Origin: Candidatus Heimdallarchaeota archaeon
Lineage (GTDB): Archaea; Asgardarchaeota; Heimdallarchaeia; Heimdallarchaeales; Heimdallarchaeaceae
NCBI GenBank assembly: GCA_019057815.1
Contig: JAHLWR010000033.1
Span: 1-28,567, forward strand
Direction: 5' to 3'
DNA: 28,567 nucleotides
Shown: positions 2,092-21,041 of the stretch, piece after piece
Numbering within the stretch: the stretch's first letter is position 1
How the letters are laid out: each line of letters starts with the position of its first letter
Notes under the pieces: generated by a model
Told to the model about the DNA's origin: nothing
Databases searched by the model: none
The model's input: only the letters and a program-made list of their open reading frames with translations
Made by a program: the position numbers and the translations under genes

Positions 2092-2422
2092 GGACGAAGC
2101 GAAAGGGCAACTTCGGTTTAATACTGAGGAACTACCTGACTCCTTTGAATCGATGTGAGTGTAAACTCACCACGTGAGAATGTGGCTCTTGGAACAGAAA
2201 CGACACGGCCTATGTCCGATGACAATGAAGTGATGAAGATAATGGTGACATTATTCGAGATAACTTACTGAGAAGGGTATAGGAAACGTTGAAACGGCCA
2301 ATCATCGATGGGAGCAAGCTTGAATAGGGTTCAACTGAACCGGGTAAAGTGCATAGGTGAATGTTGCCAGGAAGGTCCTTGACGGCTTCCTAACAGAATC
2401 AGGGGTACTCTTCGCATCGTCC
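2092..2422 (+). ncRNA. rnpB: RNase P RNA, archaeal type A
   Basis: P1 GGACGA.GCGAA/TTCGC.TCGTCC; P2 GGCAAC/GTTGCC; CR-I GAGGAA..CCTGA pairing with CR-V ACAGAA-TCAGG; P5 CTCC/GGAG; P7 ATCGATG/CATCGAT; P8 GTGAGT..ACTCAC; CR-II ACAGAAAC; CR-III TGAAAC; P19 AGGAAG/CTTCCT. Confidence 0.93.
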
Positions 2423-2575: not shown

Positions 2576-4372
2576 ATGCTCAAGTTTCCATTTAATAAAT
2601 GGATATCTTTAGTGGTTATTAGTATAGTTGTTACTATGCTTACAACTGGGAGTCAATTATATATAGCGGCACATCAGAATCCTCAAACATCAGGAAATAC
2701 TCTCTCTTCTACATATGAATTTGCAAATGCAACGTTTACTTTCGAACTTGAGAAACTGAATGTAACCCGAGGAGAAGATGATCTCATTATTACTTTTGGA
2801 TTTAAATTCACAAATGAAACATTAATTCCTGATGCAACAATTGATTATAATATAACAAACCCTTTAGGGGTAATAATCTATCATAAATCTATACTTGTTA
2901 CCACAAATGAAACCTTTAATGAAACTGTTGAGTGGGATACTTTTAATAGTGAACCAGAGGGAGTTTATAACGTCACAGCAGTAGCCAATAGTACTGCTAC
3001 TGGATTCTCTTCTCAAGCATTAGAGGTGTTTAATTTAATTATCCTTCCTGTAGGAAGAATACGAATGAGTTTTCCGAACAATCCATTTTATATTGAGTCT
3101 AATGAATCAACTAATATCCCTTTCACATTAACAAATATTGGAGGAACAAATGTAACAGATATAAATATTAATGGATACAATGTGTTTGAGTCAACAATTG
3201 AGGATTTTGATATATTCACGCCTCTATTTTCCAATTTAACGATAGCAAGTGATGAAGTGTACGAAAATAACATAATTTTTATCGCTGATGGCTATTTGTA
3301 CAAAAGACTAAGTTTGAATCTGCAATATTATACAATAGATGAACCTGAGAAAATAAAATTCACATCCAGCCCTCCTCTTGAAATTATTTACCTACCAGAT
3401 CTTGTTATTCACAATTATCAAATTCCTGAAAATGCTACACTAGGTGAGGAATATCGAATTACATTTAATCTCACAAATGGGGAGGAAGAGGTTTTATATA
3501 TTGATGCATATGCAGAAAGTGAATTAATTGAGTTTGAAGATTATGAAACGATAGGGGCCATACCTGTAAGTAGCGGTTATAACCAATTCTCCATCATTGG
3601 GATACCCCATACAGAGGGAACCGATGCAATATGGTTCTGGATTGAGATTGAATGGAGATACGGGGAAAGCGTAATTCATTCAACTCCGATATTATATACT
3701 GTGATTAGCTTTGTCAATGTTATGAATTTGACAGTAGTAACCACAATTGAAACAACAATAGTAACAACAAATGAAACAATTGGTTTCTTCGACCCAGTTG
3801 TAACTTATGCAACCATCCTTACTTCTCTCTTGCTAGGTATAGGTTACTTTTCTCGAGACGTAATTAGAGGTATCGCAACCAAAACAAAATTCAGAAAGCA
3901 AGAACACTCTTTTGCAGAGATTACTTACCCCTATGATACAGTAATTTTAGATGGTAGCAATATTGCTTGGGAAGAGAAAAACGCAGATAATAAACCTAAA
4001 TTGAACAATATCGAAATTATGATAAATAAATTGAGTAGAGCTAATTTCAAGAAAATTATTACTGTTGCTGATGCAGCACTTAGATATCAGATAGATGATC
4101 AGAAAAAACTTGACAGATTAGTAAAAGAAGGAGCAATCAAAATGCTTCCAGCCCGTGTAGATGGCGACAAATTTATTCTAAGATTAGCAGAAGAAGAAGA
4201 TGGCATGATTATAAGTAATGACATGTTTAAAGAATTCAGAGAGCAAGCTCCATGGATAGATGAGCGAAGAATACCATACACAATATTGACTAGTGAAGTA
4301 TGGTTGCACCCTACAAGTGTTTCACCTACACCAAAGGAAAAAAATGATGAGACATTAGCTTTCGATAGCTAG
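2576..4372 (+). CDS. Single-pass membrane protein: signal/anchor, beta-rich sequon-rich ectodomain, TM helix, cytoplasmic Zc3h12a(Regnase)/NYN-type PIN-like ribonuclease
   Basis: N-terminal hydrophobic helix; 15 N-x-S/T sequons in about 370 aa; Thr-rich stalk; TM PVVTYATILTSLLLGIGYFS followed by basic residues; C-terminal VILDGSNIAW...ADAALRY...DGDKFIL...IISNDMFKE. Confidence 0.85.
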   Translation: MLKFPFNKWISLVVISIVVTMLTTGSQLYIAAHQNPQTSGNTLSSTYEFANATFTFELEKLNVTRGEDDLIITFGFKFTNETLIPDATIDYNITNPLGVIIYHKSILVTTNETFNETVEWDTFNSEPEGVYNVTAVANSTATGFSSQALEVFNLIILPVGRIRMSFPNNPFYIESNESTNIPFTLTNIGGTNVTDININGYNVFESTIEDFDIFTPLFSNLTIASDEVYENNIIFIADGYLYKRLSLNLQYYTIDEPEKIKFTSSPPLEIIYLPDLVIHNYQIPENATLGEEYRITFNLTNGEEEVLYIDAYAESELIEFEDYETIGAIPVSSGYNQFSIIGIPHTEGTDAIWFWIEIEWRYGESVIHSTPILYTVISFVNVMNLTVVTTIETTIVTTNETIGFFDPVVTYATILTSLLLGIGYFSRDVIRGIATKTKFRKQEHSFAEITYPYDTVILDGSNIAWEEKNADNKPKLNNIEIMINKLSRANFKKIITVADAALRYQIDDQKKLDRLVKEGAIKMLPARVDGDKFILRLAEEEDGMIISNDMFKEFREQAPWIDERRIPYTILTSEVWLHPTSVSPTPKEKNDETLAFDS

Positions 4373-4458: not shown

Positions 4459-5160
4459 ATGAAAAGGGAACAGTGGTACAAAGATTTTCATGTAAATACG
4501 ATACCCCAATTAGAGGATGTTCCAAGAGATTATTTCTATAATCTAGACTATAATTATCTTACTTTGCAAGAAGTACAATTGTTGTTAACCTTAACTGATT
4601 CTCAAACAGCTTATTCTTTCTCAGGATTACGCAAATCCACGTCTCTTCATCAATACCAACTGACAAAAGCGATAAAGAGATTAGTAGATAGAGATCTAGT
4701 AATTAAAAACGAAATAAGAACTTACGAGCTTACGGAAGAAGGAAGTAATTTTACAAGAAAATTATTACAAGATTTACTTCAGAAAAAAGTTATCAATATA
4801 ACTGACATCTATTTCCATTCACAACGCAAAAATTTGAAACTTATACCTTCTTTAGACCAAAATACAATTATTAGCAATTTCGAGAAACGATGGTTTTTAA
4901 AATACAGATTCGTTTATAGAAAAGTGGAAAATTATGATATTGTATTGTGCTGGGAAGATAATGAAAAGAATCAAGTGCATATGTTTGTGGATTCAAAAGG
5001 AAATATAAGTGTGGAATTCAGATCCTTAAAACCAAACAATTCAGAATTAAATATTGTTTTGAGTTGGATAAATAAGGAACTCACTGAACAGTATGGAGTA
5101 AATACGGTAACGAACACAGAGCAAAATAAAGAAGATTATAATAGCGTTTTATATAATTGA
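4459..5160 (+). CDS. MarR-like winged-helix protein with an unknown C-terminal domain and C-terminal LYN (HbYX)
   Basis: LTLQEVQLLLTL...SFSGLRKSTSLHQYQLTKAIKRLVDRDLVIK...YELTEEG is a classic wHTH pattern; the protein ends ...DYNSVLYN. Confidence 0.75.
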   Translation: MKREQWYKDFHVNTIPQLEDVPRDYFYNLDYNYLTLQEVQLLLTLTDSQTAYSFSGLRKSTSLHQYQLTKAIKRLVDRDLVIKNEIRTYELTEEGSNFTRKLLQDLLQKKVINITDIYFHSQRKNLKLIPSLDQNTIISNFEKRWFLKYRFVYRKVENYDIVLCWEDNEKNQVHMFVDSKGNISVEFRSLKPNNSELNIVLSWINKELTEQYGVNTVTNTEQNKEDYNSVLYN

Positions 5161-5220
5161 CGCAGTTATCTAAAACACTGTTAAATCACTAAAACAAAAA
5201 AATAATGAGGAATTTGAAGT

Positions 5221-5883
5221 ATGAATAATATGAATTTAAATAATATGCAAAATGGTCCCGTGATAGAAGCTAAACATGGTACCACAACTGTAGCATTAAG
5301 ATTCAAAGACGGAGTAGTAGTCGCTGCAGATAAAAGAGCTTCAATGGGAACATTTATAGCTTCTAAGAAGACAGAAAAAATTCATGATTTAAACAAGTAC
5401 ACAATCGCAACTATAGCAGGCTTAGTATCCGATGCTCAATACTTGGTAAATCTTACAAAAGCTAATATTAACTTGTACGAACTTGGTAGAGGATATCCAC
5501 CTACAACAAAAATGATAGGAAATCTACTGGCTTCAGTAATGTATGAACAATATCGTGCATATTTCCCATATTATGTATCTATGTTAGCATGTGGCTTAGA
5601 TAAAGAAGGACCACATGTATTTACACTTGATATGGCTGGAGGAATTACTGATGAAGATTTTGCTTCAACAGGATCAGGATCTATGATTGCATACGGTGTT
5701 TTAGACTCTACATGGAAAGAAGATTTGACAAAAGATGCAGCATTAAAAATAGGACTAACCGCATTGAAAACAGCTATAAGTAGAGACACTGCAACTGGTG
5801 ACGGAATGGATGTGGCTGTTGTAGATAAGAAAGGTATAAAAAGACTGACTGCTGAACAAGTGAAAGCAGTTTTGGAGGAATAA
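5221..5883 (+). CDS. psmB: 20S proteasome beta subunit, catalytically intact
   Basis: 20-aa propeptide ending HG|TTTVAL (Thr1), AADKRAS (Asp17), KKTEKI (Lys33), AGLVSD, GSGS, RDTATGDG. Confidence 0.96.
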   Translation: MNNMNLNNMQNGPVIEAKHGTTTVALRFKDGVVVAADKRASMGTFIASKKTEKIHDLNKYTIATIAGLVSDAQYLVNLTKANINLYELGRGYPPTTKMIGNLLASVMYEQYRAYFPYYVSMLACGLDKEGPHVFTLDMAGGITDEDFASTGSGSMIAYGVLDSTWKEDLTKDAALKIGLTALKTAISRDTATGDGMDVAVVDKKGIKRLTAEQVKAVLEE

Positions 5884-5885
5884 AG

Positions 5886-6542
5886 ATGTTAGGACCACAA
5901 TCTATGGGATATGATAGGACATCAATTATGTATTCACCAGAAGGTCGAATAATTCAAACAGAATATGCAAGAGAGTCTGTGCGAAGAGGAAGCATTGCTA
6001 TAGGCATAAAAAGTAAGAAAGGTGTTGTTTTAGCAGGACTTCTCCGTGTAGTTGATTTAAACGAACCTGACAAGAAAATACATAAAATCTCCGAAAACAT
6101 ACACGCAATCTTTGCAGGAGTTGCTGCTGACGGTAGAATTCTAATCAGTCGATCTCGTCTTGAAGCTGAAATATTTCGTCTAACCTATGGTACACAAATT
6201 GATATTGTAGGTTTAGCAATAAAAACAGGTGATTATGTTCAACTCTTTACCCAACAAGGCGGTTTACGACCATTTGGTGTAGGTATTCTCTTTGGAGGAT
6301 TAGATGATACTGGACCTTGTTTGCAATTTGTAGATCCTGGTGGCAGTGTTGCCAGCTGTAAAGCAAAAGCAATGGGTGAAGGTGACTCAGAAGCTATCGC
6401 ATTCTTAAAAGAAAAATACAAAGATGAACTCACAATTGATGAATTGGTTGAGATTGCAAAAGAAGCTATTAGAAAGGCAGCTCGAGATGCTGAAGTAGAC
6501 GAAGCAAATATTGCAATAGAAATTATACCTTACAAAGGATAG
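5886..6542 (+). CDS. psmA: 20S proteasome alpha subunit, short and divergent
   Basis: GYDR...YSPEGRIIQTEYA, GSIAIGIK, KKIHKI, GVAADGRIL, TQQGGLRPFGV, DPGGS. Starts 2 nt after the psmB stop. Confidence 0.94.
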   Translation: MLGPQSMGYDRTSIMYSPEGRIIQTEYARESVRRGSIAIGIKSKKGVVLAGLLRVVDLNEPDKKIHKISENIHAIFAGVAADGRILISRSRLEAEIFRLTYGTQIDIVGLAIKTGDYVQLFTQQGGLRPFGVGILFGGLDDTGPCLQFVDPGGSVASCKAKAMGEGDSEAIAFLKEKYKDELTIDELVEIAKEAIRKAARDAEVDEANIAIEIIPYKG

Positions 6543-8099: not shown

Positions 8100-10532
8100 T
8101 TAAGGGTAAATGTATTTCATATCTTTTCTATTTGACAATCGTATAATGAGTCTGTCTAAGAAGCTTATATGGCTTTTTATCATGAATTTAGGAATATCTG
8201 CAACCACATAAATATAGTCGACTTTCTTCAAGTCAGTAGTCACTTCCTTGTCTCTAACTTGATAACAAATAGTGTCATCAGATATTTTTGTTAAGATACA
8301 AGCTATACCAATTTCAAGTTCTTCCTTTGTGTAAATAATTACAGATTTACCTTCTAAGCTTTCTAACATTGTCCTTTGTACTTCGATTTTTTCTTTAAAC
8401 AGACGCAGCATAATAGCTGGAAGTTCAACAATTAAGTCTTTACCTTTTAATTTCAAAATCTTGGGTTTTTTATCAGTAGATATATCAAATTCAAAGTCGC
8501 TTGATTTTATAGATTGTTTAAAGTCTATTTTTAGCATCTTAGCTAATTTGTCAGCTCCTTCGTTAAAGAAGAAAACATATCCATTTTGTAGGTTTTCTAG
8601 ATAGTCTAAAGATCTTCCTGTGTAAGTTCTTGTGAATGTAGATTTATCCTCGAGGTTTTGGAATGTAAAAATAGGTTTATTGGATTTCGGATGCTTTTCC
8701 CATTTCTGCAATTCTCCAACTTGTCCATTTTTTAGTACATAGATATTGCTTTTTTGTGCATCATGAATATCATAATCAGAAACTAATATTCGATGTTCTT
8801 CTGTTTTTCCTTTTATTTTAAGCAAAAATGGTCTACAAATGGAATCGCTCACATGGATTCCAATTACTTCACCCTCAACAATCTTGTCAAACACGTAATC
8901 GTAAGCTACAATATAACGGTTCATATATCTTTCAATTAGATCTTTTGTCCTTGTTATTTCAAGATAGGAATTAATGCCATCATCACCATAGTAGGAGTTG
9001 AATTTTTCCGTAATTAATTCAGAGAAATCGTCTCTTTTCTTTCTTAGATTATTAACAGCATTCTTCCTTATGAAATTCGGCAAAAGTAGCCAATATGGTA
9101 AAAGAGCTCCTTTAACTGGAGAGAGATTATCATCCACTACAGAAATGATTCTATACGCTGTTCTTGGATGTGACATGAAAATATTTGCAAACATAGACCA
9201 GCGGCTGGGTCGGTAGATATTGCGATATAGACCAATAGCTGCTTCACCAAGGAATCGTTGTGTTTCTTCTTCAGAGAACTCCTTCCCTGTCAAAAGTTGA
9301 ACATTAAGTCCAAAATCACCTGCTACACCTTGATAAAAACCCTCAAGCTTATAGAGAGTTTGAGCAAGTTCTTTTCCATATCCAGCCTTTTTAGTCTGTA
9401 AATCAGCATCTCCTTCCATAATTCTAACGAAGATAAACAAGAAAGCCATTATACCATAATTAATCAGGAAATAAATAACAAAAGGAACTCTCTGCTCGTA
9501 TGCAGCATAATCTAAAGTTGTTGCGGGGAGTAAAAACGCTTTCTTAATAACCATTTCAGCAGAAGCTAAAACCTGTAACCACACAACATGAAAGCGTTTA
9601 TTATGCGAAAGTTCGTGCGCAACTATTCCTCTAACATCATCATCACTAAACTCATTAAGATTCTTACAAACGAAAGCAATGCGTTGATCATAAAATGGTC
9701 CATATGCCATTGCGTTTAGTATGGGAGCTTCAACATAACCAACTTTAATCTTCCATCTGATATTCAAACGAGTTCTTACTTCCTCAACTAGTTTAAGGAT
9801 TCTTTTATCGTCAATTGGTTTGATACCTAACAATTTAGTTAGCATAGGCCCAGAAACGAAATACATCCCAAAAGAAAGAAAAATGATTATCTCATATGGT
9901 GCAATTGAGAGAAATATCACTCTTTCTGCAATATCTTTGCTAATAGGTAAATAAAACCACATCAAATTTTGAGCATCAATAACACCTGTTTTTTCAAGAA
10001 GATTAGTAACAACATAAAGAACAACATAGACGAGAATAAAGAGAACAAGATATAGTATCTGTGGAGACATCATACGACTAACAAGTATGAACTTCTTGCC
10101 AAAGAATACCAGAGCTAGTATAATAAAGACAAAAATCATTATATTATACGCCCATCCTGAATAGATTTTATTGTCAAATACCTTATCTAAAATCGTACCA
10201 ACTAAAAATACAAGATAAGTAACCATTGAAATAATCATTAATTCGCGCCAAACTGGTGATTCCCTCAACTGATATGTTTGGTAAACTGCTAGCACAAACA
10301 AGCTTAAAGCTATTGCCATTAACCAATCGCTCCAGAAAATGAGCACTAGACCGAAAGTTATACCGATTAAAGCCAACATAAGGTTTTCTGATGTAGATCC
10401 ATGTTGTATTTTTGTTTTCAACTCAGTTACAAGGAACAATATACCAACTGAAGCAATGAGAATTCCTATTCCTACATTAGGGTCAGCTTTTATTATATCC
10501 CATAGTTGGTTAATGTAATCTAAAAGGGACAT
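8100..10532 (-). CDS. Large polytopic M48 (HtpX/Ste24-family) zinc metalloprotease
   Basis: NAMAYG, GIVAHELSH (HExxH), EGDAD third ligand, SHPRTAYRI; about 7 extra N-terminal TM helices and a ~270-aa soluble C-terminal extension. Confidence 0.88.
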   Translation of the reverse strand: MSLLDYINQLWDIIKADPNVGIGILIASVGILFLVTELKTKIQHGSTSENLMLALIGITFGLVLIFWSDWLMAIALSLFVLAVYQTYQLRESPVWRELMIISMVTYLVFLVGTILDKVFDNKIYSGWAYNIMIFVFIILALVFFGKKFILVSRMMSPQILYLVLFILVYVVLYVVTNLLEKTGVIDAQNLMWFYLPISKDIAERVIFLSIAPYEIIIFLSFGMYFVSGPMLTKLLGIKPIDDKRILKLVEEVRTRLNIRWKIKVGYVEAPILNAMAYGPFYDQRIAFVCKNLNEFSDDDVRGIVAHELSHNKRFHVVWLQVLASAEMVIKKAFLLPATTLDYAAYEQRVPFVIYFLINYGIMAFLFIFVRIMEGDADLQTKKAGYGKELAQTLYKLEGFYQGVAGDFGLNVQLLTGKEFSEEETQRFLGEAAIGLYRNIYRPSRWSMFANIFMSHPRTAYRIISVVDDNLSPVKGALLPYWLLLPNFIRKNAVNNLRKKRDDFSELITEKFNSYYGDDGINSYLEITRTKDLIERYMNRYIVAYDYVFDKIVEGEVIGIHVSDSICRPFLLKIKGKTEEHRILVSDYDIHDAQKSNIYVLKNGQVGELQKWEKHPKSNKPIFTFQNLEDKSTFTRTYTGRSLDYLENLQNGYVFFFNEGADKLAKMLKIDFKQSIKSSDFEFDISTDKKPKILKLKGKDLIVELPAIMLRLFKEKIEVQRTMLESLEGKSVIIYTKEELEIGIACILTKISDDTICYQVRDKEVTTDLKKVDYIYVVADIPKFMIKSHISFLDRLIIRLSNRKDMKYIYP

Positions 10533-12244: not shown

Positions 12245-13366
12245 TTGATGAAAATTGGTATTTGTTGTTTTCCAACAGTTGGAGGGTCAGGAATAGCTGC
12301 TACTCAACTTGCAATTGAGCTTGCAAAAAAGGACCACGAAGTCTACTTAATTTCTTATGATACACCTTTCTTGCTCAGAAGTTCACGACATCCAAATATT
12401 ACACTTGAACTTGTTGATATTCTATCTTATCCTCTTTTCAAAGATATTGGAGCTCCTTATACAATTCTAGCAGCGTCAAAACTGGTAGAGTTGGTTACAA
12501 GAGTGAATTTAGACATTTTACACATTCATTATGCTATTCCAACGGGAGTTTCTGCATATCTTACTAAATTAATTACAAATGTTCCTGTCGTAATAACTGC
12601 TCACGGTTCGGACATACACATTCTAGGAGTAGACCCCTCATATAATCCTATTATTTCTCATGTCTTTCAAAATGTGGATGGAATTTCCACAGTGTCCAAT
12701 TTTATGAAAAAGGAAATATATGATAAATTTGCTAAAAACCAGGATGTAGAAGTTATTTATAACCCCATAGATATAGAGAAATATCAAAAAATTGAAACCC
12801 AGATTTGCGATTTTAGACTGCATCATGACACAAATTTCGTCCATGTTTCAAACTTCCGACCTGTTAAAGACACACCATTCATTGTTGAAGCTTTTGCAGA
12901 GGTTCTGAAAGAAAAGCCAGATTTGGGATTAATTCTAGTAGGAGAAGGACCAGAAAGGAAGAAATGTGAAGAACTCGCGTGTAAACTTGGGATTAGAGAT
13001 AATATCATCTTCCAGGGTATTCGATCATATCTCTCTCCCATTTACAACTGCGCTACAGCTTTGCTGTCTGCTAGTAAGAATGAGAGTTTTGGATTAACAC
13101 TTGCTGAAGCAATGGCTTGTGAAACACCCGCGATTGCCCCTCGAGTGGGAGGAGTCCCAGAAGTAATTGATCACGAGGTTAATGGCTATATATACGAGCT
13201 AGGTGATAAAGAAAGCTTAGTAGATTACATGATTATGTTGTTGAATGATGAAAAGTTAAAAGATAGACTTGGTAAAGCAGGAAGAGAGAAAGTTGTAAAC
13301 AACTTCAGTGGAAGCGATATCGCAGAAGAGTACATAAAATGGTACAGAAAAATACTCAAAGATTGA
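12245..13366 (+). CDS. bshA: N-acetyl-alpha-D-glucosaminyl L-malate synthase BshA (GT4)
   Basis: CFPTVGGSGIAATQLA, YPLF, HIHYAIP, HGSD, HVSNFRPVK, ESFGL are BshA signature motifs. Start probably ATG 12248. Confidence 0.9.
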   Translation: MMKIGICCFPTVGGSGIAATQLAIELAKKDHEVYLISYDTPFLLRSSRHPNITLELVDILSYPLFKDIGAPYTILAASKLVELVTRVNLDILHIHYAIPTGVSAYLTKLITNVPVVITAHGSDIHILGVDPSYNPIISHVFQNVDGISTVSNFMKKEIYDKFAKNQDVEVIYNPIDIEKYQKIETQICDFRLHHDTNFVHVSNFRPVKDTPFIVEAFAEVLKEKPDLGLILVGEGPERKKCEELACKLGIRDNIIFQGIRSYLSPIYNCATALLSASKNESFGLTLAEAMACETPAIAPRVGGVPEVIDHEVNGYIYELGDKESLVDYMIMLLNDEKLKDRLGKAGREKVVNNFSGSDIAEEYIKWYRKILKD

Positions 13367-13378
13367 TTTATCTCTTTT

Positions 13379-15004
13379 TCATAGGTTAGAATTAATATAT
13401 CCTATTCCACCCACTTGGGATATTTTGGAGTAGAATCTTCTATAAGAGGCTAAATAATCTTGTAATCCTGTAACACTTGCCATTACAAACCATGGCCAAC
13501 TTACCTCTTGCCATTGATGATTTACATCATACATACCGAATTGCCAAGATTTGTATTTTTCAATTAAGCTGTTTTGAGTAAGATTTATTTTCTTTAGTTC
13601 ATCCATTTTTGCTAAAACATTGCTTGTAATTGATAACCAAGCATCTTTTCCGAGTTCAAAATCGTTTTTTCTACGAGCTTTAGCAACTGCACCTAAGGAT
13701 TTGAAAAAATCACTTTCAAAGAGCGAATATTGAAGTAATTGTGGATCTTTAGTAACTTTTTCAATCCATGGAGTATTATAAAGAACTCTAGTATATTTCA
13801 TGTAGATTGGAAGTTGTATTCCTATTTTTCTTACTGCAGGAATAACTTGAGCATTATAGTTTATTTCTCCTGGTCCTGAAACCCTAATAGTAACTGGTAA
13901 AATAGATTGGAGTTGAGCTTGATTAGTATCAAGACGTGGAGATAGATGCAAAGAAAGAGAAGACAAATCAAGATTGTTTTTATCAACACTGAAATTATAG
14001 TTAGATTTATCTATAGGACATTTTCCTTGAAATTTTAACTCATTATTTTCTTCAACACAACGTAGTTTAACTCTGTAACCATCATTAGGACACTCATAAA
14101 AAAATGGTGAGTAGTTAGAATCTTTTCTAGTTGTTGTTGGATGAAAACCCATTGATTCAATTTTAGTGCTTGCTCTATTGAACTCTTCAATATATTCCTT
14201 TCTCGATTTGAGGAAGGGATAATATCCTTCAATCAATAACTCACGTATCCCAGGATTAGAAGAAGGAAAGAATATTACACCCCAGTCATTCAGGATATTA
14301 GCTTGAACACCCCAAATTAGAGTAACCCACTCACCTAGAGTGAGAGAAGAGCGGTAAGTTTCCCGAATAAACGAGATTATGTGAGATACTCTTTCACTAA
14401 ATAGTTTTTGAATGAATCTATCGCTTATTGAAGATTTGAATTCGTTGAAAATATTTGTTATAACATCTATGCTGTTTTTTAACCATTGGTAATCATCAGA
14501 CTTAATTGTGTGAAGAGCACACCCTTCTATTGAACTATTGTTTATTATTGATTTACTAGCAGAGGTTTGAAAATTAGGTAAGTGTATAGTTGTTATTTCA
14601 GGTTGAACCCCATCATGAGTGTTTACAAGGAACATTGGAACAAGTTGTTTTTCCATCTCTTTGCTTATATCAGAGAGGTTAACAATTGTTGCAATTTTAT
14701 TAGCAATAATACCGACTCCCCCGAAAATAGTTGCTTGTTGTCCAGCTAAAACAATCCCATTCTCCATCTGAGAGATGTTAGACGCAACTTTAGGAGTAAG
14801 TAGTCCTAGTTTTTCATGATATTTAGTAAGAATCTGTTTTAGTTTACTCATCTTGTTTGAATCGAAAGACAATTTTTCTCTTGTTAGAGCTGTTTCCACA
14901 GCATCCAGATGAGTTTTTGGTAGCGAACCATAAAAGTAACTACTATCAAGAAAGTTTTTTTCATCACTCATATAGGCTTCATATGAATCCCCGATGGTTC
15001 TCAT
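13379..15004 (-). CDS. bshC: Bacillithiol cysteine-adding enzyme BshC
   Basis: 541 aa; AGQQ...GG...NK and GPGEINYNAQ motifs; convergent with bshA. Confidence 0.8.
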   Translation of the reverse strand: MRTIGDSYEAYMSDEKNFLDSSYFYGSLPKTHLDAVETALTREKLSFDSNKMSKLKQILTKYHEKLGLLTPKVASNISQMENGIVLAGQQATIFGGVGIIANKIATIVNLSDISKEMEKQLVPMFLVNTHDGVQPEITTIHLPNFQTSASKSIINNSSIEGCALHTIKSDDYQWLKNSIDVITNIFNEFKSSISDRFIQKLFSERVSHIISFIRETYRSSLTLGEWVTLIWGVQANILNDWGVIFFPSSNPGIRELLIEGYYPFLKSRKEYIEEFNRASTKIESMGFHPTTTRKDSNYSPFFYECPNDGYRVKLRCVEENNELKFQGKCPIDKSNYNFSVDKNNLDLSSLSLHLSPRLDTNQAQLQSILPVTIRVSGPGEINYNAQVIPAVRKIGIQLPIYMKYTRVLYNTPWIEKVTKDPQLLQYSLFESDFFKSLGAVAKARRKNDFELGKDAWLSITSNVLAKMDELKKINLTQNSLIEKYKSWQFGMYDVNHQWQEVSWPWFVMASVTGLQDYLASYRRFYSKISQVGGIGYINSNL

Positions 15005-19811: not shown

Positions 19812-21041
19812 TCACTTCATGGGGAATTTAGCATAAGATCTGAATTCTATCCAATCATTCAAGTATTCATCGATTACTTCTTCGATAGAATCTTGATCTA
19901 AATTGCGAGCTATTTCCTCATCAGGTGTAAGCATGGCCATAATATAGCGTTCATCTCCAAACTTAACGTCTCTGAGAATAAAATTTTCATTTAGATTCTC
20001 GTCGACTGTATATCTTCGAACTCGTAGGAATGGTTCCCTCATGTTAACTATAGTCTCTATTGCTTCATAATATGCATTGTGAGAGAGCTCTTCCAAATCA
20101 TCTCTCTTTGAATATTGAGCAAAACAGACATTACTTCGAAAATCATATAAGCCAAAGTAATCAGCATTGAGTTTCTCTGCAACTTGTTTAGATGCATCAT
20201 TTATACTGTCTTGAATTAAAACAACGTTTCTGAAAATATGTGAAAAGGCTCCCAAAACAGTTGATCTAAGTTTTACAGTAGTTCTGAAAATATTTCTCGA
20301 TGGTTCGAAAAATTCGATATTTTCGTCAATATAATTAACCATTGAATTAAAGACATCTGCAGCTTTAGCAGTTAATTCAAAATCTGGGTCGGATTTATGG
20401 AAGAATAGCATCCAAGGGATGTTAATTTTGAGAGCTTTAGTAACTTGAACAATTTGCTTCAGATATTCCATGCTTTCTTCATATCTTTCAGCAGCTTGAA
20501 CATCAACGATATAAATCAGGATATCAGTACCAAGGAAATATTGCTCAGGATTCTGAAGGTAATCTTCGCGGTAGATTAGTTGTCCACCCAATTCATTTAA
20601 ATGGATATCCATTCCAAAAACTTCAATTTTGCTCCTTAACAAACCTCTTGTTGGAGTGAGAGCATACAACCTTTGAAATAATAAGGAAAGAGCGCCTCTA
20701 TGTTTTAATGCTATTGATAAACTTGTTTTACCTACATTATCAATACCTGCTAAAATGATTTTAGCCCCTGTTGTAATCCGTTCTTTTTCACTCACAAGAA
20801 GCAATTTGCTTCCAGCAATCCAACCGTTCACACGATCTTTTGGAATTTTTTTAATTAAACTGTTATAAGCTTCTTTCCACTTTGTAACCATATCTTCAAT
20901 AGTTTTTATTCCATTTTCCTTTAAAAATTCAAATTCATCCTTTGATATATCCAGAAGACCAATTACAAGAATAGATTTTATGTCCTCTTGGTCCCTATAA
21001 TCCTCTTTTAGAAGCTTTTCTTTTATATTTAACGCCATCAT
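19812..21041 (-). CDS. Arf/Rag-like small GTPase with N-terminal HhH-like domain and C-terminal roadblock/longin-like domain
   Basis: G1 GIDNVGKT, G2 PTRG, G3 ELGGQ, LIYIVD, G4 HKSD, G5 TTV; N-terminal FLKENGIKTIEDM. Confidence 0.82.
   Translation of the reverse strand: MMALNIKEKLLKEDYRDQEDIKSILVIGLLDISKDEFEFLKENGIKTIEDMVTKWKEAYNSLIKKIPKDRVNGWIAGSKLLLVSEKERITTGAKIILAGIDNVGKTSLSIALKHRGALSLLFQRLYALTPTRGLLRSKIEVFGMDIHLNELGGQLIYREDYLQNPEQYFLGTDILIYIVDVQAAERYEESMEYLKQIVQVTKALKINIPWMLFFHKSDPDFELTAKAADVFNSMVNYIDENIEFFEPSRNIFRTTVKLRSTVLGAFSHIFRNVVLIQDSINDASKQVAEKLNADYFGLYDFRSNVCFAQYSKRDDLEELSHNAYYEAIETIVNMREPFLRVRRYTVDENLNENFILRDVKFGDERYIMAMLTPDEEIARNLDQDSIEEVIDEYLNDWIEFRSYAKFPMK

Follow-up and report, generated by a model that had tools for sequence, protein, structure and literature searches.

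Regnase-type NYN domains are known in eukaryotes from soluble regulators of mRNA decay and antiviral defence, among them Regnase-1/MCPIP1 (ZC3H12A), ZC3H12B-D, KHNYN and N4BP1. RNases of unrelated folds are held at membranes. In Ire1, a sensor in the lumen of the endoplasmic reticulum (ER) is joined by a transmembrane segment to a cytosolic kinase and KEN RNase that is switched on by oligomerisation. RNase Y, through an N-terminal transmembrane helix, and RNase E, through an amphipathic membrane-targeting helix, both hold an endoribonuclease at the cytoplasmic face of the membrane. Membrane targeting of RNase E is treated in PMC13657362. A 2017 catalogue of the PIN superfamily contained 23 archaeal sequences of the NYN family PF11977 and gave the function of the bacterial members as unknown (PMC5499597). 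Here, we describe a gene at positions 2576-4372 of the forward strand in a stretch of 28,567 nucleotides from Candidatus Heimdallarchaeota archaeon (NCBI GenBank assembly GCA_019057815.1, contig JAHLWR010000033.1; the whole stretch is called the window below). From sequence and structure models, its product is very probably a single-pass cell-surface protein with an exported immunoglobulin (Ig)-like ectodomain, one transmembrane helix and a cytoplasmic Regnase-type NYN domain.

The protein resembles the eukaryotic Zc3h12a-type enzymes in its membership of PF11977, in its fold (24-28% identity) and in the DGSN, D-x-F-I and SND-x-x-x-[ED] motifs. It differs from them in lacking a CCCH finger and KH, ubiquitin-binding and N-terminal regulatory domains, and in having a transmembrane helix and an ectodomain instead. 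The likeness to Ire1 is one of logic only, namely a domain beyond the membrane joined by a single transmembrane helix to an RNase on the cytoplasmic side; the two proteins are not homologous, the Heimdall protein has neither kinase nor KEN domain, its nuclease is predicted to be metal-dependent and PIN-like, and its regulation is a proposal. RNase Y and RNase E differ from it in fold and have no large extracellular domain, and the small soluble and multidomain PF11977 proteins of Asgard and other archaea carry the same NYN domain without the ectodomain-transmembrane module. Deposited annotations of homologues read "hypothetical protein", "NYN domain-containing protein" or "PQQ-binding-like beta-propeller repeat protein". 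We found no description of the ectodomain-transmembrane-NYN architecture in literature on NYN, Zc3h12a or Regnase proteins in Asgard archaea, archaea or membranes, with subscription journals mostly outside the coverage of the search. A parallel with KHNYN and N4BP1 in ER signal-peptide quality control (RAPP) was dropped, as these proteins are reported not to be required there (PMC13084044).

An earlier reading of this DNA, made from its letters (the original prediction), had called the product a receptor-like membrane RNase. As a description of anatomy this stands, with the ectodomain, the transmembrane helix and a predicted cytoplasmic NYN domain all present, and the boundaries of the reading frame are exactly those first noted. 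The window is AT-rich (~33% GC), and homologues with a named source mark it as chromosomal DNA of a Candidatus Heimdallarchaeaceae genome. The parts of the protein, which contains no cysteine, are as follows, with confidence of the AlphaFold2 (AF2) models given as pLDDT (predicted local distance difference test), structural matches as Z score and root-mean-square deviation (rmsd), and N-x-S/T motifs called sequons:

2576-4372 (+): whole open reading frame, ectodomain-transmembrane-NYN protein (P0001), 598 aa plus stop, with 61 homologues
2576-2674 (+): aa 1-33, signal-peptide-like N-terminus with basic n-region, hydrophobic core and candidate cleavage site between IAA and H, or alternatively an uncleaved anchor; hydropathy peak 1.85 at aa 10-28, AF2 helix 7-23, pattern kept in homologues
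2708-3046 (+): aa 45-157, ectodomain domain D1, predicted Ig-like beta sandwich nearest to macroglobulin MG domains, with sequons N80, N92 and N138 and a conserved TRGEDDL motif; AF2 pLDDT 85-91; match to 2p9r, Z 11.5, rmsd 2.2 over 96 aa
3053-3394 (+): aa 160-273, ectodomain domain D2, predicted Ig-like sandwich (ASH/PapD-like or CARDB-like) with an N-x-G-G-T motif at N187-G190, N187 and G189 being invariant; match to 6fvi, Z 10.2, rmsd 3.2 over 115 aa
3398-3727 (+): aa 275-384, ectodomain domain D3, predicted CARDB-like Ig sandwich; sub-threshold Pfam CARDB match at 274-301 (E 0.008) and generic Ig-like matches with Z 9-10
3728-3790 (+): aa 385-405, Thr-rich disordered stalk with two sequons; pLDDT < 50 at 386-403; an alignment gap in all other genera
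3791-3859 (+): aa 406-428, transmembrane helix ending in an invariant Y-F-S-R-D interface motif; hydropathy, AF2 helix 407-437; Y424, S426 and R427 invariant in 55 of 55 homologues
3860-3931 (+): aa 429-452, basic juxtamembrane linker (KTKFRK...), partly disordered; pLDDT < 50 at 433-448; six K/R in its first 15 residues
3932-4315 (+): aa 453-580, Zc3h12a/Regnase-type NYN (PIN-like) nuclease domain; Pfam PF11977, phmmer and hmmsearch against the PDB, Foldseek, VIA; column identity 0.895
4316-4372 (+): aa 581-598 plus stop, variable acidic tail, disordered; pLDDT < 50, column identity 0.39

Topology and sequon statistics were drawn from 55 aligned homologues. The N-terminus has a basic n-region (K3 and K8) followed by the hydrophobic stretch ISLVVISIVVTML. 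At least one K or R is present in the n-region in 51 of the 55 sequences, with a hydrophobic core of at least 12 residues and small-x-small candidate cleavage sites after it, so that a signal or anchor helix, as originally proposed, is borne out and both a cleaved signal and an N-terminal anchor are possible. The protein contains exactly 15 sequons, all within aa 51-399 and none past aa 427; composition-preserving shuffles of the ectodomain gave 6.0 +/- 2.2, and 15 were reached in 1 of 5000 shuffles. Sequon starts N80, N92 and N138 are kept in every homologue and N115, N195, N286 and N51 in 46-51 of them, and across the alignment the ectodomain holds a mean of 11.7 sequons and the cytoplasmic part 0.5. 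The ectodomain is probably glycosylated. Among the 15 residues on either side of the transmembrane helix there are no K or R before it and six after it, and the homologues average 0.2 before and 4.5 after (minimum 3), consistent with the basic inside flank of the original prediction. Given this positive-inside bias and the confinement of sequons to the opposite side, the NYN domain is predicted to lie in the cytoplasm, and not outside the cell, under both readings of the N-terminus. The combination of export signal, one transmembrane helix, positive-inside flank and sequons only in the exported part is that of a type I (or N-anchored) single-pass glycoprotein. The Thr-rich stalk (385-403) is likewise present, but as a 13-17 aa insertion peculiar to the protein's own genus-level clade.

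The NYN domain matches Pfam PF11977 (RNase_Zc3h12a), a family of the PRORP group of PIN-like nucleases, at aa 454-574 with E 6e-19 and 68.7 bits against a gathering cut-off of 23, over profile positions 3-137 of 154. By phmmer (E 5e-6) and with the family profile (E 1e-6), its best sequence relatives in the PDB are ZC3H12C, ZC3H12B, Regnase-1 and KHNYN. A separate structure model of residues 405-598 has a pLDDT of ~90 in the NYN domain, and Foldseek placed the same four proteins at the top for this model (target TM-score 0.60-0.72, rmsd 2.3-3.8 Å), with PRORP second and DNA flap nucleases among the lower ranks. The VIA search gave ZC3H12C (7ndj) with Z 16.6 and rmsd 2.9 over 135 aa at 27% identity, and PRORP1 with Z 12.8. 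The comparison with Regnase-1 and PRORP that had been suggested as a check thus came out in favour of the Zc3h12a family. By sequence, the protein belongs to PF11977 and is not a Regnase orthologue. The Regnase/MCPIP subfamily has a CCCH finger directly after the NYN domain, and such a finger is excluded here by the lack of cysteine. Nor does the protein qualify as a protein-only RNase P (PRORP/HARP): a match to the profile PF16953 reached 15 bits against a cut-off of 39.1 and was accompanied by no PPR domain, and the genome encodes an RNA-based RNase P beside this gene. PF11977 is the sole Pfam domain in the cytoplasmic part, with no Ire1-type kinase or KEN RNase, and the Pfam scan of the protein gave no zinc-finger, KH or other RNA-binding module.

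The active-site acids of Regnase-1 are D141, D225, D226, D244 and D248 (PMC5499597). Alignment to ZC3H12C and this list equates D459 with D141, N462 with N144, D531 with D226, D549 with D244 and E553 with D248, so that four of the five catalytic positions are acidic and the D225 position is occupied by G530. In an order-wide alignment that includes the beta-propeller form described below, D459, the following G and S, N462, D531, N548 and D549 are invariant, and E553 is E or D in all but one sequence. The acidic residues singled out originally, in DGSN (D459, with N462), ADA (D499), DGD (D529 and D531) and SND (D549), are all present and invariant in the protein family. Beyond it the picture is mixed, since D529 is not conserved, and D499 is kept across the order but missing in the beta-propeller protein. 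Taken together, sequence and models make it likely that the NYN domain is an active RNase. We consider it highly improbable that the domain is instead an RNA- or protein-binding pseudo-nuclease, or a DNA-directed nuclease, on a structural or adhesive surface protein. Such a role would suit the non-acidic residue at the D225 position, the inclusion of DNA flap nucleases among PIN-like folds and the lack of an RNA-binding accessory domain, but the four catalytic acids and the DGSN asparagine are invariant or nearly so across the order, and the closest structures by far are RNA endonucleases.

A word-indexed search returned the 61 homologues, mostly full length (~555-650 aa) with a few partial, at 40-93% identity, and all those with a named source come from Heimdallarchaeota or Heimdallarchaeaceae metagenome-assembled genomes (MAGs), including Candidatus Heimdallarchaeum aukensis; OLS19687.1 of the LC_2 Heimdallarchaeote is a family member. 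A six-frame search covered 400 genomes of the phylum. Full-length matches were found in 39 of the 46 other Heimdallarchaeales genomes. Within the same GTDB family, 26 of the 30 other genomes have such a match, two of them being single-contig; in the order's three sister families, the counts are 1 of 1, 2 of 3 and 10 of 12, at 28-33% identity. Each of six extracted sister-family loci encodes an N-terminal hydrophobic segment, ~350 residues with 10-15 sequons, one transmembrane helix and the NYN domain. Over 60 independent full-length homologues and the two single-contig genomes exclude a chimeric misassembly, a concern raised with the original prediction.

The source genome (3.74 Mb, 95% complete) has one strong PF11977 match, and the gene is single-copy. 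A second, weak match of 23.4 bits in the same genome falls in a 177-aa frame (G000:C33:57857-57994, minus strand), probably a small soluble NYN paralogue. Four genomes of the family gave no match to the membrane protein (G016, G026, G030 and G031), and exactly these four gave no match to the RNase P RNA that adjoins the gene elsewhere in the family. Because the adjoining RNA is also unmatched, the absence looks like an assembly gap, and MAG assemblies seem to omit the locus repeatedly.

The NYN domain has a mean column identity of 0.895, and the three ectodomain modules have 0.53-0.66. Compared with a 93%-identical congeneric orthologue, dN/dS is 0.05 for linker plus NYN domain and 0.36 for the ectodomain, both values coming from a single pair of sequences in which the counts are small. 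Constraint acts on both parts, with a roughly sevenfold higher rate in the ectodomain, and diversifying selection is not seen.

The ectodomain had been described originally as about 370 aa, rich in beta structure, with 15 sequons, and the AF2 model from the 55-sequence alignment agrees. The region (~aa 35-405) is all-beta in the model, with sandwiches at 45-157, 160-273 and 275-384 modelled at pLDDT ~85-92. Foldseek and VIA returned only tandem Ig-like arrays for it (integrin, macroglobulin, PapD/ASH and the S-layer proteins SbsB and SlaA). D2 and D3 carry an N-x-G motif, which we take to be typical of CARDB-like domains. The structure search asked for in the original prediction therefore gave a fold, but no ligand-binding family that could be named. 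A phmmer search with residues 40-400 against 1.84 billion representatives gave eight matches at E <= 0.001, and the six below 1e-10 are members of the protein's own family or fragments of them. Being restricted to its own family, the ectodomain does not represent a sensor module shared with other proteins, and it suggests no ligand.

The NYN domain occurs in other designs across the phylum. The query matched 184 of the 400 genomes, mostly through the NYN region alone and, outside the order, only through it. Most of these frames are soluble proteins of 140-200 aa; in them and in multidomain forms, the NYN domain is 30-40% identical to that of the query. The earlier statement that Zc3h12a-like domains in archaea are usually small soluble proteins holds only approximately, since fusions also occur: STAND/AAA-like NTPase-NYN proteins (~890-930 aa), a TPR-NYN protein (504 aa) and an HHH-NYN protein with C-terminal hydrophobic segments (782 aa). 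One further protein, from a Promethearchaeota MAG, consists of a signal peptide and a PQQ/BamB-like beta-propeller, followed by a segment with sequons, a single transmembrane helix, the basic flank KKK and an NYN domain of PF11977. The loci are as follows:

L019:3659-5716 (-): beta-propeller-transmembrane-NYN protein (P0079/P0085), annotated 'PQQ-binding-like beta-propeller repeat protein'
L015:63-2735 (+), L016:1206-4001 (-), L018:2906-4417 (+) and L024:2535-4880 (-): NYN fusion loci (STAND/AAA-like-, TPR- and HHH-NYN)

The beta-propeller form is rare, with three close relatives from other assemblies and four sequences in all. It shares with the Heimdall protein the signal peptide, the sequon-bearing ectodomain, the single transmembrane helix, the basic flank and the PF11977 domain, but has a propeller in place of three Ig-like domains, is 24% identical over the transmembrane-NYN part and lacks the ADA aspartate. 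On sequence grounds, we judge that the ectodomain-transmembrane-NYN design arose at least twice with unrelated ectodomains. Fusion of two unrelated ectodomains through a transmembrane helix to the same nuclease domain is the best comparative hint that the outer part does more than anchor the protein.

The best explanation as a whole, to which we give a little less than an even chance, is that the protein is an exported Ig-like glycoprotein carrying a membrane-held, active NYN RNase whose activity is set by clustering. After Sec export, the three Ig-like domains and a short stalk would stand outside the cell, and one helix would cross the membrane, placing the NYN domain ~25 residues below its inner face. 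There it would cleave RNA as a metal-dependent Regnase-type endonuclease. Its targets would most likely be set by location, that is, RNAs at the membrane, and by partner proteins, because the protein has no RNA-binding accessory module. Cleavage would need NYN-NYN self-association as in Regnase-1, so that activity would follow lateral density or clustering in the membrane, and the ectodomain could set that clustering through contact with a ligand, the surface layer or other cells.

The clustering step draws on the behaviour of Regnase-1, whose PIN domain assembles head-to-tail into oligomers only at high concentration and whose P212A, R214A and D278R mutants are monomeric and inactive in vitro (PMC4772114). 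Through the alignment to the paralogue ZC3H12C, the counterparts of interface residues P212 and R214 are P525 and R527, both invariant in the protein family, and a P-A-[RK] motif is present in most of the order. A homodimer prediction for two copies of the transmembrane-NYN segment scored 0.00, which counts neither for nor against self-association. The match to the Regnase-1 interface and the second ectodomain type on the same NYN domain are indirect hints of clustering controlled by the ectodomain. By this analogy, control of the activity through clustering or through the ectodomain, including the ligand-induced oligomerisation suggested in the original prediction, is possible, though we hold it to be doubtful. 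A fuller version, in which ectodomain contact leads to clustering and active NYN oligomers cut membrane-proximal RNAs, would make the protein a surface-to-RNA signalling device with Ire1-like logic and the propeller protein a second member of the receptor class; we regard this version as rather unlikely.

Several points weigh against this explanation. Gly or Ala occupies the D225 position of Regnase-1, and D529, which lies two residues upstream of it, is not conserved beyond the protein family. The pairing of P525 and R527 with P212 and R214 depends on a sequence alignment to the paralogue ZC3H12C and presumes that Regnase-1 shares its local sequence. Neither Foldseek nor VIA recognised a ligand-binding fold or family in the ectodomain, and the search of 1.84 billion representatives did not place the ectodomain in any other protein family, unlike promiscuous sensor modules of receptors. 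Finally, a single-copy gene that is near-universal in its order and has housekeeping surroundings suits a constitutive role as well as it suits signalling.

The last point leads to the main rival, that the protein is a constitutive membrane-tethered housekeeping RNase, placed like bacterial RNase Y or RNase E, with an ectodomain that serves as anchor, surface-layer contact or positioning device and not as sensor. We think this less than likely but take it seriously. It would fit the one strong PF11977 match in a 95%-complete genome, the presence of the gene in nearly every genome of the order with the four absences in the family pointing to assembly gaps, the extreme conservation of the NYN domain, the housekeeping gene neighbourhood described below, and an ectodomain that is family-specific and generically Ig-like. 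However, a sequon-rich ectodomain of 370 aa and three domains, kept under purifying selection (dN/dS 0.36) with conserved motifs, is much for a mere anchor, and the independent fusion of an NYN domain to a beta-propeller suggests that the outside part matters.

The gene lies directly downstream of a structural RNA gene:

2095-2419 (+): archaeal RNase P RNA gene (Rfam RF00373, 149.5 bits), context, 157 nt upstream of the reading frame

We compared where the RNase P RNA and NYN genes lie across all 47 Heimdallarchaeales genomes. In 25 Heimdallarchaeaceae genomes, which span five genera, the two are neighbours with the same orientation, the RNA lying 80-250 nt upstream; one further case is split across contigs. 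No genome of the three sister families has this adjacency. RNase P RNA as a general functional partner was therefore rejected, and the link, lost in the sister families, is probably mere synteny. In three of four loci, the sequence shows oligo-T runs after the RNase P RNA, suggesting that the RNA and the NYN gene are transcribed separately; apart from these runs, the spacer is not conserved.

Downstream, all four family loci examined have a ~235-aa winged-helix protein and then a proteasome beta/alpha pair 2 nt apart (window 4459-6542, +), with an M48 peptidase of ~805 aa some genes beyond. The winged-helix protein has weak HTH_45/MarR matches and a match to PADLOC WH_III-A (E 3e-6). An eight-gene block is syntenic within Heimdallarchaeaceae. 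In one sister-family locus (L013), psmB, psmA and the winged-helix gene adjoin the NYN gene divergently, and no proteasome subunit genes lie nearby in five of the six sister-family loci. In another (L009), a gene of the PAC2 family (proteasome assembly chaperone-like; 2025-2912, +) lies directly upstream of the orthologue, a second and independent neighbour related to the proteasome that may be due to chance, and a Ras/Roc-like GTPase gene adjoins the orthologue there. Neighbours at the remaining four loci are unrelated. The sister-family neighbours include alkaline phosphatase, an ABC transporter, a Ras-like GTPase, gyrase B, an AlaX-like protein and PAC2, and no neighbour is conserved across these loci beyond pairs.

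From these arrangements, the gene context is read as family-level synteny with at most a weak association with the proteasome, and not as an operon-type link. It is accordingly very unlikely, in our estimate, that the protein is coupled to its neighbours, whether by acting on the RNase P RNA transcript in maturation or turnover or as part of an envelope-stress module of RNA decay and proteolysis with the winged-helix protein and the proteasome pair. Coupling would be favoured by the co-oriented RNase P RNA immediately upstream in 25 genomes, by the winged-helix-psmB-psmA order in all four family loci examined and its divergent counterpart in L013, and by the PAC2-family gene in L009. Against it, the genomes of all three sister families that keep the protein lack the RNase P adjacency, the syntenic eight-gene block makes adjacency unspecific, the oligo-T runs suggest separate transcripts, and proteasome subunit genes are missing near five of six sister-family loci.

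The neighbourhood also bears on a role in defence, in which the protein would sense contact with a virus or foreign cell at the surface and trigger RNA degradation, as defence or abortive infection. Nucleases linked to transmembrane segments are known from defence systems, eukaryotic NYN proteins (Regnases, KHNYN and N4BP1) are reported to restrict viruses, and the ectodomain changes at about seven times the rate of the nuclease. We nevertheless give this role very little credence. PADLOC-DB 2.0 gave no defence-model match at E <= 0.01 for this protein or the beta-propeller form, and NCBIfam gave no match for this protein. The gene lies in no variable island, being syntenic, single-copy, near-universal and surrounded by housekeeping genes, and the ectodomain dN/dS of 0.36 gives no sign of diversifying selection.

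Three other features of the window were observed. An 810-aa membrane M48 (M56-like) metallopeptidase is encoded at 8100-10532 (-) and is a conserved part of the syntenic block in each of the four family loci examined. At 12245-15004, a GT4 glycosyltransferase gene and a BshC-like (bacillithiol-type) gene are convergent, as assigned by Pfam matches. A 409-aa protein at 19812-21041 (-) has Gtr1/RagA and Arf-family GTPase matches (eukaryote-type small GTPase). The rest of the window holds core-type genes.

A nuclease domain known from soluble eukaryotic proteins is here part of a core gene of Heimdallarchaeales, joined through a transmembrane helix to an ectodomain. If the activity is constitutive, the protein would be, to our knowledge, the first archaeal candidate for an RNA-decay nuclease located at the membrane. 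If the activity is controlled from outside, the protein and its beta-propeller counterpart would represent a class of receptors with RNA cleavage as the direct output. Such control would also show how membrane-associated RNA decay may have been organised in relatives of the eukaryotic ancestor, the Heimdall group being, as we take it, the archaeal lineage nearest to eukaryotes. Should the signalling reading prove true, Ire1-like logic would have been built on a family of nucleases later employed by eukaryotes in the regulated decay of mRNA.

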